This document shows, piece by piece, positions 11,215 through 28,808 of a stretch of 32,000 nucleotides of DNA; the stretch's first letter is position 1; each line of letters opens with the position of its first letter. A program made the position numbers and the translations under genes. Under the pieces are notes generated by a model. That model saw nothing but the letters and a program-made list of their open reading frames with translations. It searched no databases and had not been told where the DNA came from. Origin of the DNA: Desulfatiglandaceae bacterium (GTDB lineage: Bacteria > Desulfobacterota > DSM-4660 > Desulfatiglandales > Desulfatiglandaceae); assembly GCA_041753575.1 (NCBI GenBank), contig JBGSUA010000033.1, positions 58,091 through 90,090 of the forward strand, written 5' to 3'.

Positions 11215-11252
11215 GAGCGCCTCCTGAGAAATTGTGTATTAATCGTAACTAA

Positions 11253-11418: not shown

Positions 11419-11472
11419 GTATTTACTAATAATCTAAGTATTCAGGTTATTAGGCTGTAGGCTGATAGCCTG

Positions 11473-11533: not shown

Positions 11534-11571
11534 ACCGTAACTAATAGAACTCATTAAGATCGTTGTTCCCG

Positions 11572-11669
11572 GGAGGACGTGAGAGTCGCATAAGGCGCCC
11601 GGCATGTACCCGGGGAAAGGCGATTGCACTTTCGATTTCATCAGGTCTCGAGCGACTCACACGTCCTTC
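11572..11669 (-). repeat. 18-nt inverted repeat (16/18) with 62-nt spacer, directly after the PpsA-like stop codon
   Basis: ggaggacgtgagagtcgc (11572-11589) versus gcgactcacacgtccttc (11652-11669). One mismatch becomes a G-U pair in RNA. An inner cccgg/ccggg mini-hairpin sits in the spacer. On the mRNA strand the stem begins 6 nt after the TAG at 11677-11675. Confidence 0.6.
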
Positions 11670-11674
11670 TACTG

Positions 11675-13531
11675 CTAAACCCGCTTAACTATGGTTACAA
11701 CTCCGGTATCTCCATCCACTCTTACTATGTCCCCGGTCTTTATGACTGAGGTGGCAATGCCTGTTCCAGTTACGGACGGGACGCCATATTCACGGCACAC
11801 TATGGCAGCGTGGCTGGTAAGACCGCCGATATCGGTGACCGCAGCCTTTATCTTTGTAAAGACAGGTGCCCACGAAGGGTTGGTGGAGGGGCAGACCAGC
11901 ACCTCTCCGGCCTTGAGATCAACTATATCCTTCAGCAGTTTCAGCACCCTGGCAGGTCCTTCCGCAGCTCCTGCGGAAGAGGCAAAGCCCTTTATCTCTC
12001 CTGCTGATCCTGCGGCTCCCGCATCAACGCCTTTAAGCCACTCCTTGACCTTGTCTGTGGTGATGCCCCAGAGCATAATGGTAAATGGTTCAGCCACTTC
12101 CTCGGGCGGCACGCCCAGGGCCGGGGTCTGCGCCCAGTTGCGGGCTGCTTCGAGGATTTTTTTCCTCTTGGCGGCCTTGGCTTTATAATAGCTTGACCTC
12201 AGGGGTATGTTGACGCCCAGGGCCCAACCGGTTGCGATCTCCGTGAGCATCTCTGGTATCTCATAGCGGTTGAACATGAATATGTCGTCAACCTTTTCTA
12301 ACAGACCGCGTTTTACCATTATGTTTCCTAAGTTGCGGATCTTGCCAAACCAGATGGTGTGGAACCAGTGCTCGACCCAGAAGAGATGATCCTCTGCGTA
12401 TCTGTAAATGGTCCTGACCGTCTTATAGGCGTTATCGAAGGTGGTTCTGTCTTCGTCTGATTTGATAAGGTCTCTATAGCTTTTTATTATGTCCTCGCGC
12501 TGTTTGTCTATGTGGTCCAGTGAGCGCTCTATCTTTTCGCCTTTTTCCAGTCTTGCGATATAGTCCTTGATGTAGTTGAAGGGGATCTCGGGTTGCGTCA
12601 GCCAGCTTCCTTCATAGTGGAGCCAGCCGCTTCCGCATGAGACATAAAACCATGGGTCTCTTGCCTTATTATACTCTTCAATCCACTGACGTCCGTCGGG
12701 GGTGGTGTCCAGTTCCGCCAGCTTTTCGGAGACTGTCTTGTTGTTTGATAAAACTCCCTTCACCCCCTTCAGAGAGGTTGCAAGCCTTGATAGTCTGCAC
12801 AGTTCTTCTTCAGGACGGAACATGGACACGTATGCCCCTGCCACCATCTTGCCGATGGCGCTTTCGCTGATGCCGGGGAAGAGCTTTCTTGCCACATCCG
12901 CAAACATCAGGTAAGCAAGATAGGTAAGGTTGAGCATCTCAAAGTGATACTGCCAGCCCTTGAACACCATATTTACCAGCTTGTCAAAGACCTCCACCAG
13001 TTCATAGGATACATAGTATCCCCTCGGCGCTGGGATGACCTGATCCTCAGGAGCGAACTTGGGCATCTCCTCAGGAACATTAAGTGCCTTCATCTCATTG
13101 CCCAGGACCTTGAACTTGGTAAGCCACTTGTCCCAGAGTTCATCATAGTGATCAAAGACATAGAAGACCCTCTTCTGGAAGAGCTCCGCCTTCTCGCCTA
13201 TAACCTCAGGAGGAGGAGGCTCAACCGCGCAGATGTACAAGTAGCATCCTACCATCCTCTGGGCGATGCCCTGGGCGGGCGGTATGCAAAATACCCTGGT
13301 TGTGTATTGCGATAGCGAGATCTGCCACGCCTCCTGGAAGATCAGGTCCAGGGGCGGCATGGGTTCAGGCGCGTGGATCTTGTCCTGATACCAGAACTGC
13401 CTCTTTTCCCAGTCCATCCTGTCTTTGGAGAACAGATAGTGGGAGGGGTACATCTCTTCCCAGCCTTCAAGCTCCGGTGGGACCTTAAATTCATGGGGAT
13501 CCGGGAACCTGCCTGCCTTTTCGTCTGCCAT
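11675..13531 (-). CDS. PEP-utilising enzyme with C-terminal phospho-His swivel domain, phenylphosphate synthase alpha (70 kDa subunit)-like
   Basis: ORF 11675..13582, trimmed to the ATG at 13531 (MADEKAGRFPDPHEF) with AAGGAGG 7 nt upstream. The C-terminus GEVLVCPSTNPSWAPVF...TDIGGLTSHAAIVCREYGVPSV is the PEP-utilisers mobile-domain His motif. 618 aa. Confidence 0.85.
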   Translation of the reverse strand: MADEKAGRFPDPHEFKVPPELEGWEEMYPSHYLFSKDRMDWEKRQFWYQDKIHAPEPMPPLDLIFQEAWQISLSQYTTRVFCIPPAQGIAQRMVGCYLYICAVEPPPPEVIGEKAELFQKRVFYVFDHYDELWDKWLTKFKVLGNEMKALNVPEEMPKFAPEDQVIPAPRGYYVSYELVEVFDKLVNMVFKGWQYHFEMLNLTYLAYLMFADVARKLFPGISESAIGKMVAGAYVSMFRPEEELCRLSRLATSLKGVKGVLSNNKTVSEKLAELDTTPDGRQWIEEYNKARDPWFYVSCGSGWLHYEGSWLTQPEIPFNYIKDYIARLEKGEKIERSLDHIDKQREDIIKSYRDLIKSDEDRTTFDNAYKTVRTIYRYAEDHLFWVEHWFHTIWFGKIRNLGNIMVKRGLLEKVDDIFMFNRYEIPEMLTEIATGWALGVNIPLRSSYYKAKAAKRKKILEAARNWAQTPALGVPPEEVAEPFTIMLWGITTDKVKEWLKGVDAGAAGSAGEIKGFASSAGAAEGPARVLKLLKDIVDLKAGEVLVCPSTNPSWAPVFTKIKAAVTDIGGLTSHAAIVCREYGVPSVTGTGIATSVIKTGDIVRVDGDTGVVTIVKRV

Positions 13532-13586
13532 GATTTGCCTCCTTCTTGAGTTGGTTTGGGTTAACGAAAAATACCGGTTCACACAA

Positions 13587-13818: not shown

Positions 13819-13871
13819 CTCAGGTTATAATGAATCAGATGGATAATATTTCCTTATCAGGAAAGGATGGG

Positions 13872-14876
13872 ATGCTGAATCTTAACCAACTGAGGATCTT
13901 TTATCATACGGCAAAGCGCCTCAGCTTTACGGCCGCGGCAAGGGATCTTTTCATAACCCAGCCGGCGGTTTCCGCCCAGATGAAGAACTTTGAGGATCTT
14001 TGTGGGCTGAGACTGTTCAGGAAAAGGGGCAAAACCCTTCACCTGACGGAAGAGGGATCCATCCTCTATGAATTGTCAAAAAGGATATTTGAATGCGAAA
14101 GGGAGATGGAAAACGCCCTGGAGGAGATGAGAGAGCTGAAGCGGGGCGTCCTTCGGCTCGGGACTACAAAGACATACGCAAGATATTTTATGCCCGATAT
14201 TATTTCAAGGTTTCATGAAGCTTACCCGCATATCAAGGTGCAGTTAAACGAGGGAAGTTCCCTTGAGATGACTGAAAGCCTTCTGGATTTTCACAATGAG
14301 GTTGCCATAATAGCAAAGGCGACCGACCACCCTGATGTAGTCTTCAGTCCATTCAGCCAGGAGGAAGTGGTCCTTATTACAAGCCCGTGGCATCCCTTTC
14401 GGGGAAAGGGCTATGTGACGGTTGATGAACTTGCCTCTGAGCCCATAATCATGAAGGAAAAGGGCTCCGGAACAAGGAAACTTGCAAGTGAACTCTTTGC
14501 AGACAGAGGGCTCGTTCCCAATATCCTCATGGAGACAGGCAACACTGAATTCATCAAACAGCTTGTTCAGAAGGGTGAGGGAATTGCCTTTCTTGTAAAG
14601 GCGGCCGTTTCCTTTGAGTTGCAGGAGGGCAAACTGGGCGCGGTAAAAATTGCTGACAGGACTCTCTTGCTCGATGTGAGCATCGCCAGGCTCAGGAATC
14701 AGCCTCTGTCGCCAGCCGGAAGGGTCTTTCTGGATATGCTTGCCGAGATAGCTTCAGCGTGTGGAAAGTCGTCGAAGGGGCTGAGGGCCATCATGGCCGA
14801 TGTGCTGGCTACCCATTGGAATCTGCCATCTCATGGAGATACCGGGCGGCAAGCTCAGCAAAGGCAGGATCATTGA
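13872..14876 (+). CDS. LysR-family transcriptional regulator
   Basis: ORF 13830..14876. I prefer the ATG at 13872 (MLNLNQLRIFYHTAKRLSFTAAARDLFITQPAVSAQMKNFE is the canonical LysR wHTH N-terminus), which has a GGAAAGGA SD. The ATG at 13830 is an alternative. The C-terminal 68 nt overlap the convergent gene. Confidence 0.85.
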   Translation: MLNLNQLRIFYHTAKRLSFTAAARDLFITQPAVSAQMKNFEDLCGLRLFRKRGKTLHLTEEGSILYELSKRIFECEREMENALEEMRELKRGVLRLGTTKTYARYFMPDIISRFHEAYPHIKVQLNEGSSLEMTESLLDFHNEVAIIAKATDHPDVVFSPFSQEEVVLITSPWHPFRGKGYVTVDELASEPIIMKEKGSGTRKLASELFADRGLVPNILMETGNTEFIKQLVQKGEGIAFLVKAAVSFELQEGKLGAVKIADRTLLLDVSIARLRNQPLSPAGRVFLDMLAEIASACGKSSKGLRAIMADVLATHWNLPSHGDTGRQAQQRQDH

Positions 14877-16017
14877 CATGATAATCCGCCTCTAAGATCA
14901 TGATTCCTTTATCCAGTCTTTCCTTTATGGTTTCTAAAAAAATTCGCGTAAGGGCCTGATCAAAAAGGGGCGCCCCCTTACGGTCCGCCTCCGACCACCC
15001 CTTGAGCGGCACGAGCAGCCTCGTATGATGCGGTGCAAGATTGAGGCGCTCCGCCACGGTCTGAGCAATCTGTCTTGTCTCGTCAGCGCTCAGGCGTATG
15101 GCGGATCTGAAGTCGTAGAAAAAGACGGGTCTGTCTTTGTAAGCGTCAGGGACAGTGTCTCGGGTGAATTCGAGCACCGCGCAGTCAAGCCCGCCAGGCA
15201 CTACAAGGCGGGGCACATCTCTGCCATCCGGGGGTGCGAGTCTCTTAGGTCCGATTCCTTTGCAGTATCCGCCCTTGAGTTCGTCGGCGAATTCATGGGT
15301 AGCCAGATCCAGTATGCCGTCAAAAAGGCCTTCCGAGGCAAGCTCTTCCATTGCCATACCGCCCGTGCCGTTCGCATGGAAGGCTATCACCTCATATCCC
15401 AGGGCCTCAAGGGCCGCCCTGGTGTGTTCGGCTCCCTCCGTTATAAATCCGAACATGGTGAGAGCTATTCTCTTCCTGGGAGAACCCGGCCTCCATTTGG
15501 CCCTTGCCATGGCGCACACGGCCTCAGCAGCCCTGTCAAGCACAGCGCCGGTTATGGAGTTTACCCCGAGCAGATCCACCACACTGTGCATCATGGTTAT
15601 GTCCTTTGTGCCTACAATCGCCGACATATCTCGAGAGGCCACCGTTGACAACATGACCTTTGGAATGCCGAGGGGCAGCACCTTCATAATGGATGTGCAG
15701 ATGTGGGTGCCGGTTCCTCCTCCGGCGCTGATGATCCCAGAGATGAGTCCTTTACCGAAAAGCTCTTCAACCAGCTCCCTTGCCCTTGAAATGACCAAGG
15801 CTATAGCCTCATCACGGCTTCCGGATGGTTCGGATTCATTAAGAAGTTCGCTATGGATATCAAAGTCAGGGTCAAAAAGAGGGCGGCCCTTGGTTCCGAC
15901 GTTGATTGTCAGAGCCTTGAGTCCAAGGGCCTCTATTCGGTTTTTGAGGAAGAGGTGTTCCTCACCCTTTGAGTCAAAGGTGCCCAAGACGGCAATAACT
16001 GTTTTTTCTGCGCTCAA
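14809..16017 (-). CDS. UPF0261 / Tm-1-like ATP-binding domain protein (paralogue 2)
   Basis: 402 aa. VIAVLGTFDSKGEEHLFLKNRIE and AGGGTGTHICTSIMKVLPLGIPKVMLST are collinear with the 5100..6344 protein. Only a TTG start is available near the family N-terminus, and the SD is weak. Confidence 0.7.
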   Translation of the reverse strand: MSAEKTVIAVLGTFDSKGEEHLFLKNRIEALGLKALTINVGTKGRPLFDPDFDIHSELLNESEPSGSRDEAIALVISRARELVEELFGKGLISGIISAGGGTGTHICTSIMKVLPLGIPKVMLSTVASRDMSAIVGTKDITMMHSVVDLLGVNSITGAVLDRAAEAVCAMARAKWRPGSPRKRIALTMFGFITEGAEHTRAALEALGYEVIAFHANGTGGMAMEELASEGLFDGILDLATHEFADELKGGYCKGIGPKRLAPPDGRDVPRLVVPGGLDCAVLEFTRDTVPDAYKDRPVFFYDFRSAIRLSADETRQIAQTVAERLNLAPHHTRLLVPLKGWSEADRKGAPLFDQALTRIFLETIKERLDKGIMILEADYHVNDPAFAELAARYLHEMADSNG

Positions 16018-16093
16018 ACGCTGTCAGTCCGGCTATGCAGTGTAAAACCGCCTCGGCAGGCATCCTTGTCTAGTATTGATAGGTGGAGTTCCC

Positions 16094-16876
16094 CTAATAC
16101 CTGGATTCCGCGACGGCCTTCGGTTTTGTAAGTATTACGGCAATGTCCACGGCCTCTTCCGATGTGCCGCCATCCTGCCGGATCTTCACGGCCAGGGTCC
16201 CTGCCGCATCCTTTCTTTCCACCCCTGAGACAACGGCCTCCAGTATCTTGAGTCCCTTCAATCCCAGGGCCTGTGGCATGAATCCATCCCGGAATTCCCG
16301 GCACAGGGGTGAAACAAGGATAATTTCTAACTCAGGATTGCGGTGAAGAGCAAGAATAGACTCATTGACCCCAAGAATAAGGGAGGAAAGGAGATACGCA
16401 TCCCCACCCTTTGGAGCCCCCTGAATGATGGCGATTCTCTTGGGTACCTCTCCGTCAAGAGATGATACCACAAGCCCGTCTGTAGGCCCTGTGGGAGAGA
16501 GCATCCTCTCAAATTGAAGATCTGTGATCACATTGGCAAAAGATCCGTAGCCAAGTTCCCTGGGGATTTTTTCAAAGGTGTTGTCCTGACCCGCGGTGGT
16601 GACTACCTCATCAAATTCAAGGTCAAGGATCTGATCCGGGATACTGAAATCAATCGCCTCAGGCTTGCATTCGGCCCAGCACAGGGCGCATCCCAGGCAT
16701 CTTCTGCAGCTCAGACACCTTTTTGCTTCTGTTATGGCCGTTTCCTCAGGAAAGCCTGTTTCGACCTCGGTAAAATTTCCCTTTCTTTCCGCGACCGTTA
16801 TCTCCGGCATTTCAGCCCGTTCGGCCGGGACGTCGAAAAATGGGATGATATATCTTCGTTCTTTTTCGTAGATCAT
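16094..16876 (-). CDS. Ferredoxin-like plus HdrA-middle-domain protein, degenerate (FeS Cys cluster lost)
   Basis: 260 aa. The ATG abuts the TAG of the upstream gene, with a GAGGAG SD. EAKRCLSCRRCLGCALCWAECKPEAI and NVITDLQFERMLSPTGPTDG are collinear with the HdrL-like segment [26 protein letters not shown]...[20 protein letters not shown]. Where HdrL has QCVGSRD...YCSSVCCMY, this protein has IIQGAPKGGDAYLLSSL. Confidence 0.65.
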   Translation of the reverse strand: MIYEKERRYIIPFFDVPAERAEMPEITVAERKGNFTEVETGFPEETAITEAKRCLSCRRCLGCALCWAECKPEAIDFSIPDQILDLEFDEVVTTAGQDNTFEKIPRELGYGSFANVITDLQFERMLSPTGPTDGLVVSSLDGEVPKRIAIIQGAPKGGDAYLLSSLILGVNESILALHRNPELEIILVSPLCREFRDGFMPQALGLKGLKILEAVVSGVERKDAAGTLAVKIRQDGGTSEEAVDIAVILTKPKAVAESRY

Positions 16877-18550
16877 CTATTTGCTCCTCAGGTATTCGTG
16901 AATCCCCAGGGCGCCCTTCTTGCCGCCTGCGATGGCCCTGATGGCGATATCGGGTCCCGAAACCACGTCGCCACCGGCGAAAACGCCGGGTATGTTGGTC
17001 TCGCCTGTGTATGGATCTATCTCAAAAGTTCCGTATCTGGAGATCTTGAAGGTGTGATCCTGAGGAAGCATCGAGAGGTCTGTCCCCTGGCTTATGGCGG
17101 GAACTATGGTTTCGGCCTCGATGACATATTCTGAGCCGGTTTTTGGTACCGGCCTTCTTCTTCCGGATGCGTCAGGCTCACCCAGTTCCATCTTTATGCA
17201 CTTCATGCCTGTGGTCTTCTGTCCATCGCCAATAATCTCAACAGGGGCTGCCAGATACTGAAGCTTAATCCCTTCATGTTCCGCCGCGTCAATCTCCCAT
17301 GGGTTGGCAGGCATCTCCTTCTTGGTCCTTCTGTAAAGGATATAGACTTCATCAAAACCCATGCGCCAGCCCACCCTGGCTGAGTCTATGGCCGCGTTTC
17401 CTCCCCCAATGACAATGATCTTTCCCTTGGCCTGCGGAAGCCTCCCTAATGCCTGTTCCCTCAGAAAGGTAACGCAGTCAATCACACCCTTGCCCTGGTA
17501 TTCATCTTCTCCGGGCACGGCGAGCTTAAGTCCCCTGTGGCACCCGGCGCCGACAAAAAGGGCATCAAAGTTTTTCTTCAGATCATCAAAGGATATGTCC
17601 TTGCCCATCCTGGTATTATAATGGATCTCAACTCCCATGGAGCAGATCAGATCCACTTCCCTCTGAAGGATCTTTTTGGGGAGGCGGTATTCCGGGATTC
17701 CCACCCAGAGGTATCCGCCAGGGATTGGCAGTGCCTCGAAGATCTCTATGTCTTTGTAACCAAGCCTTGCAAGGTCGTAGGCGCAGGCGAGACCGGCAGG
17801 ACCAGCGCCCACAATGCCTACTTTCTCAGGATATTTCTTGACGGGTGTTTCGTATGCCGGCTCAACACCTTTAGACAGCTCGACGTCTGACACAAACCGC
17901 TTGAGAAAACAAATGCTTATTGGCTTGTCGAGATATTGTCTGTTACAAGCGGTCTCGCACGGATGAGGGCATATTCGGCCTATGCTTCCTGGCAGGGGAA
18001 GCCTGTCTCTGATTACGGCTAGTGATTCGAGGTACTTTCCGTCAGCGATAAGGCCCACGTAGGAACGAATATCAAGATTTGCCGGGCATGTCCTTTGACA
18101 GACAGGCATTTCCTCCTTGAATATGTTGTATTCGCCGGTAATGGGATTGCAGAAATCAACAGCGGTTCTAAAGCCAAGACCCTCGTTGAAGTCATCGAAC
18201 ATGTTGACAGGACACACTCTTATGCAGGCCTTGCAGTCGGTGCACTTGGAGTTGTCAACGCGGATGCTCCTTTTGAGGATTTTGGCATTTACCTTGCCGC
18301 TATCCTTTCGCAATCTCTTGATCTCACTGTAGGTAAGGATGTCAATGGAGCTGTTTGAACGCACCTTTTCAAGATCCGGATTAACAAAGGCGTTTTCCGG
18401 GGTTATGAGCCGATCTCTGGGGATGCGCTCCGCGCCAAGGGTTGGGAACTTCTCAAGGATGGTAACCTTGGCTCCTGCCTGGGCCCTTTCAAGAGCCGCG
18501 TTTACGCCCTCAAGACCCCCTCCGATAATCAATATTTTTCTGCTTTCCAC
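16877..18550 (-). CDS. Fusion of a degenerate HdrA N-terminal FAD segment, ferredoxin and a GltD/NfnB-type NAD(P)H-binding flavoprotein
   Basis: ORF 16877..18619 (TTG), trimmed to the GTG at 18550 (VESRKILIIGGGLEG). AAGAGG lies 9 nt upstream, and the start is 5 nt after the upstream TGA stop. GltD hallmarks: GRICPHPCETACNR, VGIVGAGPAGLACAYDL, IIVIGGGNAAIDSAR and GVFAGGDVVSG. Confidence 0.8.
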   Translation of the reverse strand: MESRKILIIGGGLEGVNAALERAQAGAKVTILEKFPTLGAERIPRDRLITPENAFVNPDLEKVRSNSSIDILTYSEIKRLRKDSGKVNAKILKRSIRVDNSKCTDCKACIRVCPVNMFDDFNEGLGFRTAVDFCNPITGEYNIFKEEMPVCQRTCPANLDIRSYVGLIADGKYLESLAVIRDRLPLPGSIGRICPHPCETACNRQYLDKPISICFLKRFVSDVELSKGVEPAYETPVKKYPEKVGIVGAGPAGLACAYDLARLGYKDIEIFEALPIPGGYLWVGIPEYRLPKKILQREVDLICSMGVEIHYNTRMGKDISFDDLKKNFDALFVGAGCHRGLKLAVPGEDEYQGKGVIDCVTFLREQALGRLPQAKGKIIVIGGGNAAIDSARVGWRMGFDEVYILYRRTKKEMPANPWEIDAAEHEGIKLQYLAAPVEIIGDGQKTTGMKCIKMELGEPDASGRRRPVPKTGSEYVIEAETIVPAISQGTDLSMLPQDHTFKISRYGTFEIDPYTGETNIPGVFAGGDVVSGPDIAIRAIAGGKKGALGIHEYLRSK

Positions 18551-18554
18551 TTTG

Positions 18555-19337
18555 TCATACCTCTTTAGGAGCGAGTGTATAGAGAGGACTTTGGCCGGCA
18601 ATCCTGTCCAGAACCACAAAGCCCTTTCGCTTCAGAGCCAGTATATGGCGAAAGACCTTTTCGACAGGCATGGAAAAGGAAGCGGCCAGATCCTTTACAG
18701 ATCGCGCCCCTTCCCTGAGCCCTGCAATGATCTCCTGGACCTCTGTCTCCTCAACTATAATCATGTCAACTGCGCGTTTGAATTCGTGCTCTGTAAAGAC
18801 CTCACCGTACATGTTGCCTTTCGTGAGGAACGGAGTCCTTTTTCCGATCACCCATCTGATCTTTTCTCCCGCTAGAACCGCTTCAGCACTCTCAAGTTTC
18901 TTGTGGAGCCGCGATGTCTCAAGACGATCGCCTCCTGCTCCCAGCGGCCCCAATTCTTTTATCTTTTCTGTAAATTCTGTGACGATCTTTACAAAGACCG
19001 ATGCCTCGCCTGAGGAGCATTGCCTGAAGGCCAGCCTTTCAGGGTTCATGCCCACGTAATCGAAGACTCTCCTGGCGACATCGAGTTTTGCCTTAGCCTG
19101 AAAGTTGCCGCTTATGTAATGACAGTCGCCGAAGTAGCAACCCACGACCAGCAATCCGTCAAGGCCTTTCTTGAAGGCCCTTGCCGTGATGGCAGGGTCA
19201 AGCCTGCCGGTGCACATGATGCGCACGATTCTGATATCCGGGGTATATTGTAGTCTGGAAACTCCAGCCAGGTCCGCTGCCGAGTAACCTCACCAGGTGC
19301 AGCAGAAGGTCAGTATCTTGGGAGCAAATTCACCCAC
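18555..19337 (-). CDS. mvhD: MvhD-like (BamF-like) FeS protein with in-frame Sec codon and about 127-aa C-terminal extension
   Basis: GTG at 19337, with AGGAGG 6 nt upstream. Reads [50 protein letters not shown]...LLVVGCYFGDCHY. ORF-track entry 18555..19226 is only the part downstream of the TGA. 260 codons. Confidence 0.8.
19290..19292 (-). other. In-frame UGA read as selenocysteine (MvhD-like copy 2)
   Basis: The TGA falls where the paralogue at 23891..24310 has Cys ([15 protein letters not shown] versus [15 protein letters not shown]). The frame continues for 244 further codons. Confidence 0.75.
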
Positions 19338-19456
19338 GGGAAACCTCCTTAAACGATAGCCTTAATCAATCTTCGCAGCCAGGCGGATCTTCAGACTCGA
19401 AGCCCACGCCCGCCTTAAACAGTCAATGCTGATGGCAGAACTTGTACGGCATGCCC

Positions 19457-21127
19457 TCAGCCCAGGAATGCCGCTATCTGAGCGTCAATCTGATCGTCCG
19501 TGAAAGAGTTAATGGTAAGAGCGTGCTGATAACAGGTAGCGGCGCATACCCCGCATCCCTTGCACGCGACATCTATCACCTTGACCTTTCTACCTTTGTC
19601 AGTCTTTTGAACCTCAAGTGCCCCGTAAGGACAAAGCGCTACGCACAATCCGCAGCCTCTGCACGCGTCCACATCGGCCAGAACCGATATGATCGGCTCC
19701 ACAACAACCGATCCCTTGGAAAGGGGTATGGATGCTCTTGATGCAGCCCCCAGACCCTGGGCAATAGCCTCGCGTAAGTTTGCGGGGAACCGGGCGCTGC
19801 CGCAAAGGAAAACACCGTCCGTCGCGAAATCAAGGGGTTTGAGTTTGACGTGACCTTCCAGGAAAAATCCGTTTTCGTCAACGGGCACCCTTATGAGCTT
19901 TCCGACCTCGTCGGCGTCCTCCTGGGAAAGCAGTGGAGTAGAAAGCACCACCATATCGGCCGGCAGTTCCATATCCTTTCCTAAAAGTGCGTTATATACC
20001 AGGACGGAACCGGTCTGGACCTGAGGAGGCCTGTCCGGGTTGTAGTTTACATATCTGATACCCTTCGCTTTAGATTCCCGGAACATCTCCTCGTTTTCCA
20101 CCCCATACATCTGCATATCTCTGTATAGTATGGTGACCTTTGTCGCCGGGTCTTTATCCTTTATCAAGAGAGCGTTTTTGACGGCGGTCTGGCAGCAGAT
20201 TCTGGAGCAGTAAGGCCTTTCTTCGTTTCTGGCTCCGGCGCACTGGATCATCACCACGCTTTTGACCGAGGGATCAAGCCCTTGTTTCAGTCTGGGCTCC
20301 AGCTCAAGCTGCGTGATGACCCTCTCGGCGTCGTATCCGTAAAGGCCGGTAGGGACAAAGACCCTCGCACCGGTGGCTATGATTACGACCCCCAGATCAA
20401 TTTTCTTGGTCCCGGTTGGTGTCTCTATATCAGCGCTGTATTTCCCTATGAAACCCTCTACCCCTGTTACCCTTGATCCTGTGAAGGTCGTTATCTTCGG
20501 ATGGCATGACACAGCTTTTACTGTGCTTTCGGCTAACTGCAAAGCGTCAGTCATGGATGGGCCAAGTTTATTCAGGTTAAGGAGCATGCCCCCCAGCCTT
20601 CCTTCCCTTTCAACGATAACTACTTCGTAGCCTCTGTTCGCGAGCGCAAGCGCCGCGGTCATACCGGAGATGCCGCCGCCGATCACAAGCGCTCTTGGAA
20701 AGACGGGGCTCATTATGGGCTTCTGGGGCTCTAGAAGGGCGGCCTTGGCTATCCCCATTCGTATGAGATCCTTGGCCTTGCTGGTGGCTTCTTCCTTCTC
20801 CTGCATGTGGACCCAGGAGCATTGGTCCCTTATGTTGACCATCTCAAAGAGATAAGGATTGAGGCCTGCCTCGCCGCACGAACTCCTGAAAAGGGGTTCA
20901 TGTGTCCGGGGGGTGCAGGAAGCCACAACCACCCTGTTGAGGTTTTGCTGGCCAATGGCCTTCTTGATCTCGTTTATGCCTCCCTCAGAGCAGGTATAGA
21001 GGTTTCTTTGAACAAAGGCCACATTGGGGAGGGTTTCCGCGTATGCTCCGAGGGCCTCCATATCGAGATATCCTGCGATATTTGAGCCGCAGTGGCAGAT
21101 GAACACACCTATCCTAATCTCATCCAT
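19457..21127 (-). CDS. hdrA: HdrA-like flavoprotein (N-terminal Cys domain, FAD domain and two C-terminal ferredoxin motifs); second half of a BamE-like unit
   Basis: ORF 19457..21142 (TTG), trimmed to the ATG at 21127 (MDEIRIGVFICHCGSNIAGY). [36 protein letters not shown] and the C-terminal CRGCGLCVALCP/CKGCGVCAATC motifs are collinear with the C-terminal 550 aa of the 24345..28808 protein. Confidence 0.85.
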   Translation of the reverse strand: MDEIRIGVFICHCGSNIAGYLDMEALGAYAETLPNVAFVQRNLYTCSEGGINEIKKAIGQQNLNRVVVASCTPRTHEPLFRSSCGEAGLNPYLFEMVNIRDQCSWVHMQEKEEATSKAKDLIRMGIAKAALLEPQKPIMSPVFPRALVIGGGISGMTAALALANRGYEVVIVEREGRLGGMLLNLNKLGPSMTDALQLAESTVKAVSCHPKITTFTGSRVTGVEGFIGKYSADIETPTGTKKIDLGVVIIATGARVFVPTGLYGYDAERVITQLELEPRLKQGLDPSVKSVVMIQCAGARNEERPYCSRICCQTAVKNALLIKDKDPATKVTILYRDMQMYGVENEEMFRESKAKGIRYVNYNPDRPPQVQTGSVLVYNALLGKDMELPADMVVLSTPLLSQEDADEVGKLIRVPVDENGFFLEGHVKLKPLDFATDGVFLCGSARFPANLREAIAQGLGAASRASIPLSKGSVVVEPIISVLADVDACRGCGLCVALCPYGALEVQKTDKGRKVKVIDVACKGCGVCAATCYQHALTINSFTDDQIDAQIAAFLG

Positions 21128-21131
21128 TTTA

Positions 21132-22676
21132 TCAGCAGGCAACGGCTTTCTCCTTCCCTGAATAGTAATGGAACGCTATCTCAGCCGCCCTGGCAGCCGC
21201 ACTGGATGCCTGAGCGACCGATTCGGGTACATCCATTGGGGCCTGAGCGCAGCCGCATACAAAAACCCCAGGCACGTTGGTGTCCACGGGCGAAATCGGG
21301 CTGGTCTTTATGAAATTGTATTTATCAAGCTCCACGCCAAGTTTCTTTGAGAGTTCGACAATCCCCCTGGTAGGGGCGCAGGCCGTAGCCAGGATTACCA
21401 TATCGAACTCCTGGCTTTTCACCTTTCTCTCCTTTGTGTCTTCGTAGGTGACAACAGGATTATTGTTTTCGCCTCCGGTTATCTCAGCCACTCGGCCCCT
21501 TACGTACGTTATGTTGGAATGATTTCCGCCCCTGATCTTGTATTCCTCAAAACCCTTGCCCACAGCCCTTATGTCCATGCCGAATATGGTGGAAGTGGTC
21601 TCCCTCCCATGTTCGTGAGCTATGATAGCCTCTTTTATGGAGTGCATGCAGCAGTATCCGGAGCAGAAGGGAAAAAATCTGAAGTCTCTTGAACCTACGC
21701 ACTGGACAAAGGCAAGGCGCTTGGCTACACTGAACCCGGATGCTTTCGCCTTCATGGCCTCAAGGGAGGTCTGCATGGGGAGAAACTCCTCATACTTCTC
21801 AGCCCACTTGGCCCTGTCGGAGTCATCTCCGTAATCACCACTCCGGTATTTCAAGATGAAATCCGATGATTTTTCACCGTATTTTTCCTCGTATTTTTCC
21901 AGCGCCTTTACTGCCTTTTCAGCTTTTTTCTCCAGTTCGGCAAGCTCCGACTCTATGGCCCTGTCAGAGGGCCGATCAAGATGCCCGCCTGTAGGTCCGC
22001 TTGCGCTCAAAAGCCTTTCGAATTCTATCGCGGTGACGACGTTCGGCAGGTCCCTGTAGTGATATTCGGGGATCCTGGAAGGGTCAAAGACATCATATCC
22101 AGCCGCAACGATTATGGAGGCGACATCAATTTCGACTATCCTGTCTTTTTGATCGAAGTTGACCGCCTTTGCCTGGCAGGTCTTGGCGCAGATACCGCAT
22201 TTTTTCCCGTTAAGCTGCCGACAGTGGGCCGGATCTATGGTATGGGTAGATGGTATGCCCTGGGCGAAGAGGCTGTATATGGCCTTTCTGGTTCCAAGTC
22301 CCTCATTAAAGGAGTCAGGCACAACAGTCGGGCATTTCTCCTTACAGGCCCCGCAGCCTGTACATTTATCCTCATCCACATATCGGGCTTTTCGGCGGAT
22401 AGTCACCTTGAAGGCGCCCGCTTCACCTTCGACCTTTTCAACTTCGCTGTAGGCCAGGAGCTTAATGTTTGGATGTCGACCGACATCCAGCATCTTCGGC
22501 GAGAGAATTCAGATGGCGCAGTCGTTTGTTGGGAATGTCTTGTCGAGCTGAGCCATCTTCCCGCCTACGCTGGGAAGTCTCTCCACCAGGTGCACCTTGA
22601 TGCCCATATCTGCGAGATCAAGGGACGTCTGGATGCCGGCAATGCCTCCTCCGATAACAAGGACGTCTTTAGTCAT
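21132..22676 (-). CDS. hdrA: HdrA-like flavoprotein with in-frame Sec codon; first half of a BamE-like unit
   Basis: ATG at 22676. Reads [79 protein letters not shown]-track entry 21132..22493 is the post-TGA part. Also [32 protein letters not shown] and QCVGSRD...FCSGYCCMH. 514 codons. Confidence 0.85.
22509..22511 (-). other. In-frame UGA read as selenocysteine (HdrA motif DCxx[C/U]IL)
   Basis: The TGA is the 56th codon from the ATG at 22676. The flanking FPTNDCAI / ILSPKM is the conserved HdrA active-site stretch. Confidence 0.8.
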
Positions 22677-22723
22677 GATCAATTATCCTTCGGTCCTTAA
22701 GTTTGTGTTAAAGTCAAAAAATC

Positions 22724-23860
22724 TCAAACAGCGGTCGCGCCGGGTTTAATCCGCTCGGCCACCATGTCGTAAAGGTCAACTATCTCTATGCCAAGATCAA
22801 ACGCTGACTTGGCGCACCGGAAATGAATCTGGCATTTGGGACAGGCAGTCACAAGGGTATCCGCTCCTGTCGCGGAAGCCTCCTTCAGTCTTTCAAGCTG
22901 TATCGCCTTGCTGCAGCTTGAGCAGTTCATCCATCCGGTGGTTCCGCAGCAGACAGCGTTTTCTCTCGATCTCGGCATCTCTGTTAGTTCCACGCCCGGC
23001 ATGGCCTTGATGATGGCCCTGGGGGCATCAAAGATGCCGGCAAGCCTGCCGAGTCTGCACGGGTCGTGGTAGGTCACTTGGGCCTTTGATTCCGTGAAAC
23101 TGATCAATCCCTGGGAGGCCTTTTCACTCAGGAGATCAATTATATGAACGGGCTCAAACCCCAGTTCACCGAAATAGCGGGGATAGTAACGCTTGAATGT
23201 GAGGTAGCCTTCCGGACAACTGAAGACGACCCTCTTCGCCCCTGAGGATCTGATCAGTTCAATGTTTTTAAAGGCCAATTTCTTGAATTTATCCTCATCT
23301 CCGTTCCAAAGTGCATCGTGGCCGCAGCAGCGCTCATCATTGCTGACAACAGGTATCTCACCCATGGCATTGAGTATGGACACAATGTTTCTAGAACTCT
23401 TTATGGATCCGGCATTTATGTCCCTGAAGACCACATCAAAATATGGGCGGCATCCGACGAAATAGAAAAGGTCTCCCTTTTCAGCCGTCTTGAGGCCTTC
23501 AAGCCAGAAGTTTCTCTTCTGCGCCATTTCCCCGGTCTGTATGGAAGTTATGGTCTGTAGCATGCCGTTGTGCGCGGGCACTCCGTCAAAGCCCATTTGG
23601 TGTGCCTCGTCTCTCATGAGGCGCACGAATTCCGGGAAATCTATGTTGGCTGGACACCTGACGCTGCACTGGGCGCAGGTCAGGCAGCTCCAGATGGTTC
23701 CATCCGATGGTTCTTCCAGACCGTAGAGGGATCTTTCTATGATCTGGCGTGGTGAAAAATCACTGAATACCCTGGCCACAGGACAACTTCCTGTGCAGAC
23801 TCCGCAGTCCAGGCAGTAGTAGGTCTTTGTTGCGTCTATTAACTGGGCAATTGCAGTCAT
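22724..23860 (-). CDS. HdrD-like / BamD-like protein (HdrC-type 2x[4Fe-4S] N-terminus plus two HdrB-type CCG domains)
   Basis: 378 aa. CLDCGVCTGSCP and CLTCAQCSVRCP ferredoxin motifs. CCG-type motifs FVGCRPYF...ERCCGHD and YHDPCRLGR...AVCCGTTGW. Confidence 0.85.
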   Translation of the reverse strand: MTAIAQLIDATKTYYCLDCGVCTGSCPVARVFSDFSPRQIIERSLYGLEEPSDGTIWSCLTCAQCSVRCPANIDFPEFVRLMRDEAHQMGFDGVPAHNGMLQTITSIQTGEMAQKRNFWLEGLKTAEKGDLFYFVGCRPYFDVVFRDINAGSIKSSRNIVSILNAMGEIPVVSNDERCCGHDALWNGDEDKFKKLAFKNIELIRSSGAKRVVFSCPEGYLTFKRYYPRYFGELGFEPVHIIDLLSEKASQGLISFTESKAQVTYHDPCRLGRLAGIFDAPRAIIKAMPGVELTEMPRSRENAVCCGTTGWMNCSSCSKAIQLERLKEASATGADTLVTACPKCQIHFRCAKSAFDLGIEIVDLYDMVAERIKPGATAV

Positions 23861-23890
23861 TGTCTCGCCTCGTCCAATAAAGTCATTTTC

Positions 23891-24310
23891 TCAGGCCGCC
23901 TTGCGAAGAGGCGAGGGGCCTATGGCCTTGACTTGTCGCGTGAATTCAGTGGCAACCTGAGCGAATTTTGTGCCTTCTGCAGATGAGATCCATTCAAGGC
24001 GCAGTCTGATCGGATCAATTCCCAGAATGACGGCCAACTCCCTGGTCATTGCGAACATCTTTTCTGCCTTTACATTACCGTCCAGGTAATGACAGTCACC
24101 GATGTGTCAGCCTGCGACCAATACCCCGTCGGCCCCCTGTTCAAAGGCCTTCAGGATGAAATTGGGATTTATCCTGCCTGAGCACATGACCCGGATTATC
24201 CTCATGTTAGGAGGATACTGGAATCGGCTCACTCCGGCAAGGTCCGCAGCCGAATAGGCGCACCAGTTGCAGGCGAAGGTTACTATCTTTGGACTGAACT
24301 CCTCGTTCAT
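23891..24310 (-). CDS. mvhD: MvhD-like FeS protein with in-frame Sec codon
   Basis: [26 protein letters not shown]...[30 protein letters not shown]...[10 protein letters not shown], with a stop at 23893-23891. I counted 72 codons after the TGA by hand. The ATG at 24310 has GGAGGAG 9 nt upstream; the alternative ATG at 24328 has its SD too close. ORF track lists only 24107..24328. Confidence 0.8.
24107..24109 (-). other. In-frame UGA read as selenocysteine (MvhD motif G[C/U]HxGDCHY)
   Basis: The paralogue at 18555..19337 has Cys in this column (LLVVGCYFGDCHY versus VLVAG-U-HIGDCHY). Confidence 0.75.
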
Positions 24311-24344
24311 GCTGCTGAACTCCTCCATACCTCAAATAAGGACC

Positions 24345-27300
24345 TCAAATGCCCTGGTGCAGCGCTGCGTGCACCATGGTGAGGACCTCTTGGTCGTCAA
24401 AGTGAAATATGCTGGCCGCCCCGGTGGGGCAAGCCACCGCGCAGGAGCCGCATCCCTTGCAGAGGGCCTCCTGAACAAAGGCCACAGTTCTTCCTCCCTC
24501 CCTTTCAACAAGGGAGACGGCATTATAGGGGCATACTTCAACGCACTTGCCGCAGCCCCTGCACATGCTCTCAGTCACATGAGAGACAACCCCTTCAACT
24601 GTAAGCTCCTTCTTCGATAGCACAACCGAGGCCCTTGATGCGGCTGCCTTTGCCTGGGCTATACTTTCCTCAATGGGCTTGGGATAATGTGCCATCCCGG
24701 CCAGAAAAATTCCATCAGTTGCGAATTCCACAGGTCGCAGTTTTGCGTGTGCTTCCATGAAGAAACCGTCCTGATTAAGCGGAAGCTTGAATATCTGTGC
24801 GAGGGCACTGTTATCCGCTGGGATAATGGCTGATGCAAGCGCCACAAGATCTGCGCGGAGCCTGATTTTTCGATCTAAAATATGATCTTTCACAGTTACC
24901 CAAAGCTCGGATCCATCTTTTTGAACCTCAGGCTTATCGTTGAGGGTATATCTTATGAATATAACTCCCTTGGCTCTGGCATCTCTATAAAGGGCTTCTC
25001 TTTGCCCATAGGTTCTTATGTCTCTATAAAGGACATAAATATCCATTTCCGGATTAAGTTCTTTGAGTTCCAGCGCGGACTTGATGCTGTGGGTACAGCA
25101 GACTTTTGAGCAGTAAGGTCTGGAAGGCTCCCTTGACCCCACACACTGTATGAAGACGGCGGCTTTGGCCTCCGATATACGGATGTCCTTGCCTGTGATC
25201 GCCCTGTCAAGCTCAAGATGGGTCATAACCCTCGAGTCTTCTCCGTATAGATACTCTTTGGGCTTGCATTCCTCGGCGCCGACCGCCATCACGACCGCTC
25301 CGTGGCGGATCTGGGTATCTTTTTCTCCCTGCCCTATGGCGGTCTCGAAGTTGCCTACAAAACCACTGCTTTGCCTGATCACAGCATCTGTGTAGAGATC
25401 AATTAATGGGTGACTTTTAACCCTCTCGATCATCTCAGACAAAGATCTGCCTATTTCTTCCCCTCTCCACGTTGAAACAAGGTTCCTTGCGTTGCCTCCC
25501 AGTTCACTTGCCTTCTCTACCAGGGTAGTCCTGTAGCCCTGATCAGCAAGAGAAAGAGCTGATGTCATTCCGGCTATTCCTCCGCCGATGACGAGAGCCC
25601 TGTCGTCTACTCCAATGGTAGGCTGTGGAAGGGGGGTTATGAGCCTAGCCCTGGCCACTGACATTCTAACAAGATCCATAGCTTTCTGGGTTGCTTGCTC
25701 TTTCTCCCTGCTGTGGACCCAGGAGCACTGGTTGCGTATATTTGCCATCTCAAAAAGGTACTTATTGAGGCCTGCATCTCTCAATGTTTCTTGAAAAAGC
25801 GGCTCGTGAGTCCTTGGAGTACATGCCGCCACCACAACCCGATTCAGTTTCTCCCTCTGGATTACCTCCTTCAACTTGTCCTGAGTGTCCTGGGAACAGG
25901 TGAAGAGATTTTCCTCCACATAGGCTACACTTGGCAGGGATCGAGCGTATTTTACAACCTCAGGCACATTGACTATGCCACCAATGTTAGTTCCGCAATT
26001 GCAGACAAAAACACCGATTCTCGGTTTTTCATCTGAGACATCCCGTTCCGGGGGATAGATTCTTTCCTTTACAAGGCTGCCCCGAGCGGAGGAAAGTTTG
26101 GCCTTAACGTCACACGCCGCTGCGCTTGCCTCCATTACAGAATATGGTATATCCTTTGGTTCCTGAAATGCGCCGCATACATAAACACCTGGTCTGGATG
26201 TTGCCACTGGTGAGAAGCTTCCGGTGTCAACAAAACCGTCTTTGTCGAGTGAGATCTCAAGTCTTTCTGCCAGTGCCTTAAGAGACGCGGGGGTCTCGAG
26301 CCCGACAGAGAGAACAACAAGGTCAAAGATCTCTTCCCTGGGTGTTCCGTCCTCATCAGCATACCTTATGATCAGGTCGTTCGTTTCGCCAACCTCTTCT
26401 ATGGAATGGATCCTCGATCGGATATATCGAACTCCCATCTCTTCCCTGGCACGGTTGTAATAACCTTCGAAGTCCTTCCCGTAAGTTCGCATATCCATGA
26501 AAAAGATGGCAGTATCAAGGTCTCCGCCGGCATGCTCCTTGGCAATTACGGCCTCCTTGGTTGCATACATGCAACACACAGAGGAACAGTAGGAATGATC
26601 GCACTGGTTGATGTCTCGGGAACCAACGCATTGGAGCCAGGCAATCTTATGAGGGTGTTGTCCGTCAGAGGGCCGCTTGAGCTGCCCCTGATAAGGGCCT
26701 GTTGAACTCAGGATCCTCTCAAACTCCATGCTGGTCACAACGTTGGGAAATCCGGCGTAGCGATAGGTCTCGTAGCGGCTGGGATCAAAAGGCTCAAAAC
26801 CCGGTGCGAGAATCACGGACCCAGCCTTTATTTTCAGGAGATCACTCACCTGTGCATGGGTTTCGAGTGTGACAGCCTGTGCTTTGCATGCAGTGACGCA
26901 TTGATAACATTCGCAGCATCCTCCGCAGTTGAGACAGCGATTGGCCTCTTCAGAAGCGTCTTTTTCGCTGGCGCAGAGGTTTACCTCCTGAAAACCGGAA
27001 AGCCTTTGTTCCGGGGGCATGGTAGGCGCATGCATTCTATGCCTTATGGGTTCCTCCTTGGAAATTGAAAGCCAATGGTCTCCCATGGGGGGGCCTTCTT
27101 CCCATTCTGTTGGAAGGACTTCACCTTGCAGATATTTGGAGATATAAGTTGCAGCTCGCTTTCCGGCCTCCACCGCTTCAATTACCGTAGCGGGGCCTGT
27201 AATGAGATCTCCGCCTGCGAAGATTCCTGGCTGGTTGGTCTGAAGTGTTTCTGGGTTTACTACCAGTGTGTTCCATCTCGATATCTCAAACCTGGAATCC

Positions 27301-28808
27301 TTCCCCAAATTTCCGAGGTCTGGTTCCTGACCAACAGCAGGTATGATATGCTCCGCCTCGATAAAGAATTCCGATCCTTCTATAGGAATCGGCTTTCTTC
27401 TCCCGGTGGAATCGAGTTCTGAGAGTTTTGTCCTTATGCATTCTATTCCTGAAACGTTGTTCCCATTACTGGCGATCTTGAGAGGAGCCACCAATAAATG
27501 AATCTTGATTCCCTCAATTTCGGCCTCCTGGATTTCTTCTGGTTCAGCAAGCATCTCTGCCTTTGACCGTCTGTAAATGATATGGGCCTCGCTAGCTCCA
27601 AGCCTTAGTGCGACCCTGGCGGCATCCAGGGCTGAATGTCCCCCTCCGATTACCACCACCCGGCCTTTTAAGGAAGATAGTTTTCCAAGGTGTACTTCTC
27701 TCAGAAAGGTTATTACATCTACAACTCCCAGGGCCTCCTCTCCTGCTATTCGCATCTTGAGTCCCTTCCAGGCCCCAATTGCAAGAAATATCGCGTTGGC
27801 GCCGTGTGCCTGTAAGTCTTCCAAAGTGATGTCTTTGCCTAGTGAAACATTTGTTTGAATGGCTATGCCGAAGCGGGAAAGGTTATTTATCTCTGCATCC
27901 AGGACACTTCTTGGGAGGCGATGCTCAGGAATTCCGTAACGCATCATTCCTCCAGCCTCCGGCATTGCCTCGTAAACGGTAACCCGGTAACCATCGAGAG
28001 CAAGAAAATAGGCTGCAGTAAGACCTGCAGGGCCTGATCCTATTACAGCAACATGCGCTTTTCTGGGTGTTATATTTGGAACTGGGAGATCGCTGAGGTT
28101 TACGTGGTCGGCTGCTACACGTTTTAACTCCTTTATGGATATAGGCTCATCAACCTCGAGCCTGCGACAGCTCTTTTCGCAGCGATGAGGACATACCCTT
28201 CCCAGAACCCCTGGGAAAGGGAGATCCTTCATTATGATCTCAATGGCTTCTCGGTACTTCCCCGCCTTCACCATCTGGACATACCCCTGCACGTTTAAGT
28301 GGGCCGGGCATGCCATCCGGCAGGGGGCCTTGTCCAGTTTCTCTATGGCAAAACCTCCGGGTATGGCCTGGGCATAGGGTTTAAAGATAGCCTTCCTTTT
28401 AGCAAGGCCCTCGTCATATTCGCTGGGCCTCACAACGGGGCAGGCCTGAGCGCAATCCCCGCACGCCGTGCAGCGGGCAGGATCAATATATCTGGGGGTT
28501 CTTCTGACAGCGACCTCGAGGTTGCCTTCTTCTCCTTCAATGCTTTCTATGTTAGAACAGGTAAGAAGCTCGATGTTGGTGTGCCGGCCGACCTCGACCA
28601 GCTTGGGCGAGATAATTCACATGGCGCAGTCGTTAGTTGGAAAGGTCTTGTCAAGCTGTGCCATCACGCCGCCTATGGCCGGCGACTTCTCAACGAGATA
28701 AACGTAATAACCGGCGTCGGCGAGATCCAGGGCCGACTGCATGCCGGCGATTCCTCCTCCTACCACTACAACAGACCCTTCTATATGCTGGGTTTTTTTT
28801 GCTTCCAT
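24345..28808 (-). CDS. hdrL: Giant HdrL-like selenoprotein: HdrA FAD domain interrupted by a GltD/NfnB-type NAD(P)H module, followed by a second complete HdrA unit
   Basis: ATG at 28808 with an AAGGAG SD. Reads [78 protein letters not shown]..., in frame with ORF 24345..28433 (125 codons upstream of that ORF's first residue). Total 1487 codons. GltD motifs [29 protein letters not shown] and [15 protein letters not shown]. Second HdrA unit: [15 protein letters not shown]...[18 protein letters not shown]...[24 protein letters not shown]. Confidence 0.85.
28617..28619 (-). other. In-frame UGA read as selenocysteine (HdrA motif DCxx[C/U]I)
   Basis: This is the stop codon of ORF-track entry 28617..28808. 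The reading frame continues uninterrupted into ORF 24345..28433. Confidence 0.8.

Follow-up and report, generated by a model that had tools for sequence, protein, structure and literature searches.

A conserved eight-gene operon for HdrA-type proteins beside a phenol island in a Desulfatiglandaceae bacterium

A 32,000-nt stretch of a Desulfatiglandaceae genome (contig JBGSUA010000033.1; this whole stretch is the window, to which all coordinates refer) contains, on its minus strand, nine co-directional open reading frames (ORFs) between positions 14809 and 28808 when translation is read through four in-frame TGA codons. We number these genes g1 to g9 in transcription order, from 28808 to 14809. 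Next to them lies an island of genes for turning phenol into benzoyl-CoA, and the locus raises the question of whether its genes related to heterodisulfide reductase (Hdr) supply low-potential electrons to aromatic reduction, as a first-pass annotation of this DNA had proposed, or form a unit of their own.

From 28808 to 16094, the gene products are HdrL, a short MvhD, an HdrD/BamD-like protein, HdrA, a complementary HdrA (HdrA'), a long, BamF-like MvhD, a fusion of an HdrA piece to an NfnB/GltD-type module, and an HdrA remnant; HdrL, both MvhD proteins and the first HdrA contain predicted selenocysteine (Sec). We consider it probable that these eight genes (16094–28808) are a self-contained, widely conserved Desulfobacterales operon for a soluble, Sec-containing HdrA-type bifurcating or confurcating system with pyridine-nucleotide input, and that the operon came to stand beside the phenol island by lineage-specific juxtaposition. 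The first-pass annotation had treated all nine genes as one locus; their common direction is borne out by the ORF calls, whereas the ninth gene, a member of the UPF0261 family, goes with the phenol island by synteny.

Conservation of the eight-gene module

An alignment search with the long MvhD (g6) identified 162 relatives among species-representative genomes, of which the best 80 loci were examined. Gene order was determined by tblastn with all window proteins, and a locus is called testable where its contig allows the test. We determined that g7 follows g6 in 76 of 76 testable loci and that g8 follows g7 in 68 of 68, while g5 is present in 64 of 69, g4 in 51 of 52, g3 in 46 of 47 and g2, upstream of g3, in all 42. 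Protein identity across related loci is about 55–90%, the nearest relative being the Desulfobacteraceae metagenome-assembled genome (MAG) SURF_67 (84–89%). Nearly all carriers, mostly uncultured, are Desulfobacterales or 'Deltaproteobacteria' MAGs; Desulforhabdus sp. TSK and Syntrophobacterales also occur among them, and one carrier, Desulfobacterium sp. TRIP AH-1, comes from an enrichment that degrades polycyclic aromatic hydrocarbons (PAHs). The layout that the first-pass annotation had described as duplicated and reshuffled is thus no local peculiarity; it is a fixed arrangement in dozens of Desulfobacterales genomes.

The module is flanked by unrelated housekeeping genes, and these flanks are not conserved. 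No flanking family occurs in more than seven loci, the commonest, judged by eye from cluster-representative sequences, being SecD, SecF, TatD, a deacetylase-like protein, Tgt, an MFS transporter, threonine dehydrogenase and pyruvate kinase. Homologues of pps, ubiD, ubiX or hcr were found within 10 kb in none of the 80 loci, and neither g9 nor the LysR gene that follows it in the window was found in any of the 45 loci having at least 3 kb beyond g8. A gene of the aldehyde:ferredoxin oxidoreductase (AOR) family occurs in the flanks of one of the 80 loci, and genes for electron-transfer flavoprotein (ETF) in the flanks of none.

The four in-frame TGA codons (in g1, g2, g4 and g6; Table 1) are conserved as well. 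The aligned codon in homologous loci is TGA in 62 of 62 cases for g1, in 48 of 56 for g2 (the other eight have a Cys codon), in 60–64 for g4 and in 88 of 88 for g6. On these comparative grounds, the four TGAs are selenocysteine codons and not gene breaks. A small conserved hairpin lies 19–27 nt 3' of each TGA; as these hairpins are nearly invariant, they add little independent weight to the conservation of the codons themselves. A search of Rfam gave no match of a bacterial selenocysteine insertion sequence (SECIS) family at the hairpins.

Variants of the module were also observed. At five loci (L079–L081, L085 and L088), a more distant, reduced relative consists of a fused double HdrA, a long MvhD, g7-like and g8-like genes and a distant CCG protein, and lacks g2–g5; this set may be a minimal form of the complex. 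One MAG (HyVt-30; L020 and L046) holds two copies of the module, and at L073 an additional HdrL-like gene (17160–20700 of that locus) lies a few kb downstream of it. Because some genomes hold two copies or an extra HdrL-like gene, paralogous module sets therefore exist.

Architecture of the encoded proteins

The first-pass annotation had compared the sub-order CCG protein, double HdrA and long MvhD with bamD-bamE-bamF of class II benzoyl-CoA reductase. In the Geobacter metallireducens complex, Bam[(BC)2DEFGHI]2, as described in a 2026 preprint (10.64898/2026.04.10.717634), BamE is a fused HdrA dimer that carries the bifurcating FAD, a Cys59–Cys62 pair and Lys280 in its first unit. BamF exceeds the usual length of an MvhD by more than 100 residues and has Sec19 as well as a winged helix in contact with BamI. 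The HdrD-like BamD has only four Cys ligands at its distal non-cubane cluster, and its acceptor is ETF.

The g3 protein resembles BamD; in it, two CCG domains are combined with two CxxCxxCxxxC ferredoxin motifs. Its first CCG site comprises four Cys (C137, C178, C179 and C215) with Gly218 in fifth place, its second site has all five, and the nine Cys and Gly218 are invariant in 50 of 50 homologues. The disrupted four-Cys non-cubane site is therefore common to both proteins, being the distal one in BamD and the first CCG site in g3.

In PDB sequence searches, g4 aligns to residues 142–562 of HdrA (5ODC; E 1e-127) and g5 to residues 1–234 and 316–647 (E 6e-128). The g4 protein consists of a thioredoxin-reductase-like FAD domain with an inserted ferredoxin domain, without the N- and C-terminal domains of HdrA, and carries a TNDC-x2-Sec pair (Cys55/Sec58), the four-Cys cluster of the FAD domain and the lysine of the CCMxxxK motif. 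The g5 protein consists of the N-terminal cluster domain of HdrA (its Cys are kept in 71 of 71 homologues), an FAD domain that has neither the Cys/Sec pair nor the inserted ferredoxin domain, and a C-terminal 2x[4Fe-4S] domain. Because these alignments cover complementary HdrA domains, we identify g4 and g5 as the predicted complementary halves of an HdrA pseudo-dimer, which has the architecture of BamE (two units with complementary domain sets, the first bearing FAD, Cys pair and Lys) but is split over two genes. Relative to methanogen HdrA, the FAD domain of g4 is interrupted at residues ~240–320 (window 21720–21965) by an acidic, Lys/Glu-rich helical insertion of about 80 residues; an NCBIfam match of this insertion to the antitoxin TumA was rejected as spurious.

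Of the 260 residues of g6, only 8–130 are covered by the Pfam FlpD domain, the whole of g2 being 145 residues long. In the AlphaFold model of g6 (pLDDT 84), the N-terminus resembles the MvhD chains 5odc_D and 7bkb_F, and the last ~65 residues resemble winged-helix domains (Z-alpha, ArsR; TM ~0.8). In part, g6 resembles BamF: it is a long MvhD with Sec beside its first Cys motif, at residue 16 (19 in BamF), and a winged helix is predicted at its C-terminus, but its middle is predicted to be helical where BamF is reported to have a second Rossmann fold.

Domain mapping, the Sec positions and the four-Cys site support a BamDEF-like core at the level of architecture, and the D-E-F gene order is common to the G. 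metallireducens complex and the window, as the first-pass annotation had noted. Its count of two MvhD genes and one HdrD-like CCG protein agrees with our Pfam, NCBIfam and PDB searches. The two systems differ in that the equivalent of BamE is fused in Bam and encoded by two genes here, in that an HdrL-MvhD pair precedes the core here, and in that the BamBC tungsten module and BamGHI (NuoE/F/G-type) are missing from the window, where g7 and g8 come next instead. The Geobacter locus is not among the best 80 of the 162 relatives of the long MvhD. MvhAGD-HdrABC of methanogens (PDB 5ODC) shares the HdrA fold, the MvhD adaptor and a CCG-type terminal subunit with the encoded proteins; in the window, however, a fused HdrD takes the place of HdrB and HdrC, two complementary, half-functional paralogues stand in for the HdrA homodimer, Sec is present, and the input appears to be pyridine nucleotide. 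As had been reported in the first-pass annotation, Pfam scans of the window proteins detected no AOR/BamB- or BamC-like protein, no [NiFe] hydrogenase MvhAG and no formate dehydrogenase.

The BamGHI place is taken by a GltD/NfnB-type module, as originally described. The HdrA piece at the N-terminus of g7 keeps GGGxxG and one ferredoxin motif and has lost TNDCxxC/U, that is, the Cys/Sec pair, while the NfnB/GltD-type part is intact, with sites for 2x[4Fe-4S], FAD and NAD(P)H; among solved structures this part, like the module of g1, is nearest to the NfnB-like portions of 9bov/8oh5 and to NfnB (4ylf/5jca). By alignment, g8 keeps one CxxCxxCxxxC and the NVxT..FERxLSxTGP motif; missing from it are the four cluster Cys of the FAD domain, the flavin Lys and the last ~55 residues, which hold the C-terminal FAD motif PGVxVCG. 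The g8 protein has no Pfam domain above threshold and only weak HdrA matches in NCBIfam; its relatives, which comprise stand-alone, fused and HdrL-embedded forms, number 394 cluster representatives at E<=1e-10. We conclude from these comparisons that g7 and g8 together encode a conserved, putative NAD(P)H module of the NfnB type, mounted on an HdrA remnant that lacks a flavin. That the two genes are decaying pseudogene fragments was considered and rejected because both are conserved in every testable genome, and the degenerate HdrA segment of g7 is itself conserved in homologues. The term 'degenerate', used in the first-pass annotation, is accordingly apt for the lost motifs, but not if decay is meant. 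NfnAB and the Stn-family transhydrogenases have an N-terminal 2x[4Fe-4S] domain and sites for FAD and NAD(P)H in common with the modules of g7 and g1; they differ in that the window has no NfnA-like gene (by Pfam) and no HydBC-like StnAB, and in that the module is grafted here into the inserted-ferredoxin domain of HdrA.

The first gene, g1, encodes a 'double HdrA' in one chain, in which an NfnB/GltD-type insert of about 430 residues (~160–590) lies within the inserted-ferredoxin domain; Pfam places Fer4_20 and Pyr_redox_2 at residues 160–549, flanked by HdrA segments. In BLASTP comparisons, its residues 1–561 match g7 (40% identity), 590–834 match g8 (26%), 930–1483 match g5 (43%), and 13–164 plus 633–888 match g4. 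The paralogy behind the earlier description of three differently packaged versions of one domain set (fused in g1, split in g4–g5, split with GltD in g7–g8) is thereby confirmed, although the third version corresponds to the N-terminal half of HdrL only.

The pair g1–g2 fits the definition of HdrL-MvhD, named in 2009 for Desulfobacterium autotrophicum HRM2 (Strittmatter et al. 2009; PMC2702500), namely a large Sec-containing HdrA with an inserted glutamate-synthase/NAD(P)H-binding module of NfnB type, followed by mvhD. An NfnB-type module in the inserted-ferredoxin domain is likewise present in HdrA9–11 of ANME-1, among the NfnB-inserted and heterodimeric HdrAs catalogued in anaerobic methanotrophic archaea (ANME; Chadwick et al. 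2022). In contrast to both, HdrL is here merely the first member of a fixed eight-gene set, and its insert is dispensable in related genomes or swapped for a NuoF/NuoG-type input. Of the 37 classifiable loci, 12 begin with HdrL bearing the GltD insert, 22 with the same double HdrA lacking it, and three with a form that has a different N-terminus and a NuoF-like gene before it; a NuoF-like gene precedes the cluster in only four related loci. This modularity, seen at L008, L019, L033 and L066 (upstream of the module), at L005 and L025 and at other loci, suggests exchangeable input modules.

Table 1. Positions of the genes and other features in the window
Feature	Position	Strand	Description
Right end of window	30977..32000	+	Flavodiiron-type protein; metallo-beta-lactamase and flavodoxin sequence features, judged by eye
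g1, HdrL	24345..28808	-	1487 aa; Sec64 = TGA 28617-28619, TNDCAM-U motif; Pfam Pyr_redox_2, Fer4_20, Fer4
g2, short MvhD	23891..24328	-	145 aa; Sec74 = TGA 24107-24109, VAG-U-xxGxCH motif; Pfam FlpD (E 5e-54)
g3, HdrD/BamD-like	22724..23860	-	378 aa; Pfam CCG, Fer4_8
g4, HdrA-type flavoprotein	21132..22682	-	516 aa; Cys55/Sec58 pair, TGA 22509-22511
g5, complementary HdrA'	19457..21142	-	561 aa from TTG 21142
g6, long MvhD, BamF-like	18555..19337	-	260 aa; Sec16 = TGA 19290-19292 in CCTW-U
g7, degenerate HdrA N-terminal piece with NfnB/GltD-type module	16877..18550	-	557 aa; Pfam Fer4_20, Pyr_redox_2
g8, remnant of HdrA/HdrL middle	16094..16876	-	260 aa; start abuts stop of g7
g9, UPF0261 (Tm-1-like)	14809..16017	-	402 aa; Pfam UPF0261 N- and C-terminal domains
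LysR-type regulator	13830..14876	+	From ORF and translation; convergent with g9, divergent from ppsA
Phenol-to-benzoyl-CoA island	750..13582	-	From Pfam, NCBIfam and synteny with Desulfatiglans anilini
Second UPF0261 paralogue	5100..6344		
FAD subunit (HcrB-like)	3622..4500	-	~292 aa
Left end of window	1..~510	-	End of a DedA-like membrane protein, judged by eye

For g5, a start at ATG 21127 (556 aa), which matches the HdrA N-terminus, is more likely than the TTG of Table 1. The GTG start of g6 lies 6 nt past an AAGGAGG Shine–Dalgarno sequence.

The phenol island and its relation to the Hdr genes

By Pfam and NCBIfam, the island encodes phenylphosphate synthase subunits like PpsA and PpsB, a carboxylase of the UbiD type, a receiver-domain protein, an aryl-CoA ligase, a UPF0261 protein, UbiX and HcrB/C/A-like subunits; with g9 and the LysR gene (750–16017), the phenol-to-benzoyl-CoA island is complete. 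Its counterpart is the phenol-induced cluster of Desulfatiglans anilini (PMC6114531; locus L089), which is collinear, with rearrangements (UPF0261, convergent LysR, ubiD, ligase, UPF0261, ubiX, hcrBCA and ppsAB), as are two metagenome contigs. The molybdenum subunit of the window has its best match to TIGR03194, 4-hydroxybenzoyl-CoA reductase alpha (899 bits; cutoff 995). Its FAD subunit aligns end to end with CutM-type flavoproteins (CutM, 287 aa), and to Thauera aromatica HcrB (1rm6_B, 324 aa) over residues 3–117 only, with 112 bits to TIGR03195 (cutoff 405). The ~40-residue [4Fe-4S] insertion of the beta subunit of Thauera-type 4-hydroxybenzoyl-CoA reductase is missing from it, in keeping with the first-pass statement that the neighbouring enzyme of the xanthine dehydrogenase family lacks the ferredoxin-entry FeS loop. 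The loop-less form appears typical of this Desulfobacterota clade, as D. anilini, Desulfonema magnum and one metagenome contig likewise have short FAD subunits (292–293 aa) without the loop.

The g9 protein has no Hdr-related domain by Pfam. Because of synteny, we assign g9 to the phenol island, of which it is, as judged from gene order, the first gene, and not to the Hdr set; as a ninth subunit it was rejected, being absent after g8 in the 45 genomes with sufficient downstream sequence and present with the island in two metagenome contigs (L092 and L093). In these contigs, the g9 orthologue stands with a convergent LysR gene and a pps/ubiD island and has no Hdr genes beside it, its upstream neighbours being hcrBCA in L092 and DNA ligase and regulators in L093. 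The LysR layout of the window recurs in both, as well as in L001–L005 and L089. In D. anilini, no Hdr genes were found over ~21 kb from the UPF0261 gene onward, the readable range beginning just upstream of that gene and so leaving out the side on which the Hdr genes lie in the window; lone hcrBCA clusters (L090 and L091; D. magnum and one further contig) lack Hdr genes within 10 kb.

Adjacency of Hdr genes and island is confined to the lineage of the window and its relatives, L001–L004 (86–99% protein identity) and L005 (~70–90%). Because the module recurs without island genes and the island recurs without Hdr genes, the phenol island and the Hdr operon are, on comparative grounds, independently conserved units. 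Within the window, the opposite-strand LysR gene, which overlaps g9 at the latter's 3' end, parts the Hdr genes from the island. Scans for promoters and terminators yielded a single plausible promoter-like site, which lies upstream of ppsA, and no terminator behind g9. Comparative genomics from both sides argues for coincidence, and the position of the operon beside the phenol island would not count as evidence of a shared function.

Two further features of the island were observed. The two UPF0261 paralogues (g9 and the second copy in Table 1) are a fixed feature of the phenol islands L089, L092 and L093, and might be stand-ins for missing phenylphosphate carboxylase or synthase subunits. A gap of ~460 nt (11215–11674) between ppsA and ppsB holds no ORF of at least 80 aa, and L001 has a similar gap.

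Proposed electron flow and alternative explanations

The most likely wiring of the complex is patterned on the published electron paths of BamDEF and HdrA. NAD(P)H would be oxidized at the flavin of g7, and the electrons would then pass via the clusters of g7 and g8 to the C-terminal ferredoxin domain of g5, on to the [2Fe-2S] cluster of g6, beside Sec16, and to the bifurcating FAD of g4 with its Cys55/Sec58 pair. From there, one branch would lead through g3 to a soluble high-potential acceptor, for which ETF (the acceptor in class II benzoyl-CoA reductase) and a DsrC-type disulfide are candidates, and the other to ferredoxin or to HdrL-MvhD. The acceptors would thus be ferredoxin plus ETF or DsrC, and the reverse, confurcating direction is equally possible. 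The pair g1–g2 adds another double HdrA, of the HdrL type, which brings an NfnB insert and an MvhD of its own. A bolder form of this proposal is that the eight genes encode one supercomplex that stacks NfnB-type and HdrA-type bifurcating flavins, as BamGH does with BamE, and that either interconverts NAD(P)H, ferredoxin and ETF or DsrC, or makes very low-potential electrons for a partner encoded elsewhere, in this lineage perhaps the loop-less 4-hydroxybenzoyl-CoA reductase; we regard this as rather unlikely.

Several points weigh against reading the eight genes as a self-contained system juxtaposed to the island by coincidence. Its electron donors, acceptors, complex composition and direction of flow, like every step of the wiring above, are inferred. 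The likeness to BamDEF is one of described features of the G. metallireducens proteins, not of measured phylogeny, and the linker of g6 is predicted in the AlphaFold model to be helical, without the second Rossmann fold reported for BamF. Furthermore, because at least three related lineages with 80–98% protein identity (the window, L001–L004 and L005) keep the module next to the phenol island, it may have been recruited locally in the lineage of the window, and it could serve aromatic metabolism from a distance.

The explanation closest to the original proposal is that the module is dedicated to feeding low-potential electrons into the neighbouring 4-hydroxybenzoyl-CoA reductase, or into other aryl-CoA reductions in phenol degradation. 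A loop-less HcrB-like subunit needs some other entry for electrons, the core is BamDEF-like, and the adjacency is kept in all the related lineages just named. However, no Hdr genes accompany the loop-less hcrBCA within 10 kb in D. magnum and two metagenome contigs, the range read in D. anilini (ending just upstream of UPF0261) contains none, 80 other genomes carry the Hdr module with no hcr, pps or ubiD nearby, and the two gene sets are separate transcription units with the opposite-strand LysR gene in between. The phenol and aniline proteome papers on D. anilini (including PMC6114531), in the parts that were searchable, do not mention Hdr proteins, and literature searches pairing 4-hydroxybenzoyl-CoA reductase with Hdr or bifurcation gave nothing relevant. 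We therefore consider such a dedicated supply very improbable. It is also quite improbable, if less so, that the module is an alternative BamDEF-type driver that docks BamBC-type tungsten reductases encoded elsewhere and so forms an NAD(P)H-fed class II aryl-CoA reductase. The BamD-like four-Cys site, the BamF-like Sec position and winged helix and the BamE-like pseudo-dimer would suit this role, as would the carrier from the PAH-degrading enrichment; the near absence of AOR-family genes from the flanks (one of 80 loci) and the presence of Desulforhabdus and Syntrophobacterales among the carriers speak against it. So would, if homologous to the module, a cluster of hdrA1(Sec), mvhD1 and a pyridine-nucleotide-disulfide oxidoreductase in D. 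multivorans that was detected only in cells grown on butanol, propanol and butanoate (PMC5109826).

That the module couples NAD(P)H and ferredoxin with DsrC (called the 'bacterial heterodisulfide') during sulfite reduction, as has been put forward for HdrL-MvhD clusters of sulfate reducers, is unlikely in our estimation, though this reading draws on the HdrL-MvhD concept itself and on the HdrL1-MvhD-DsrABC neighbourhood of D. autotrophicum (PMC2702500). HdrABC and HdrL of S. fumaroxidans are abundant only with sulfate, for which a DsrC link has been proposed (PMC5947623), and the carriers of the module are almost all Desulfobacterota. Yet there are no dsr genes in the window or among the conserved flanks, and g3 has the BamD-like disrupted CCG site, which in BamD goes with ETF and not with disulfide reduction (10.64898/2026.04.10.717634).

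The best reading of the eight-gene set is hence a widespread, general redox complex that is a new combination of known parts, not an aromatic-specific machine. Of the NAD(P)H-linked bifurcation machine for aromatic reduction that had been proposed, the machine is upheld by the architecture, whereas its link to aryl-CoA reduction and to the enzyme of the xanthine dehydrogenase family is not, given the absence of pps, ubiD and hcr from the 80 loci. The first-pass annotation had itself suggested examining the co-occurrence of the arrangement and had named clusters occurring mainly in organisms without aromatic metabolism as evidence against the link; a module found in 80 species-level genomes with unrelated flanks comes close to that. 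Its description of the complex as uncharacterized holds, in that the searchable literature yielded neither a biochemical characterization nor a definition of the eight-gene set.

HdrA-type bifurcating modules are emerging as interchangeable building blocks, the structure of class II benzoyl-CoA reductase (10.64898/2026.04.10.717634) being the newest case. The operon described here has a BamDEF-type core with a different, NfnB-type input, no adjacent catalytic partner and a fixed gene order. If characterized, it would fill a gap in the cytoplasmic electron flow of completely oxidizing sulfate reducers and would provide a test of the stacking of Nfn-type and Hdr-type bifurcation.

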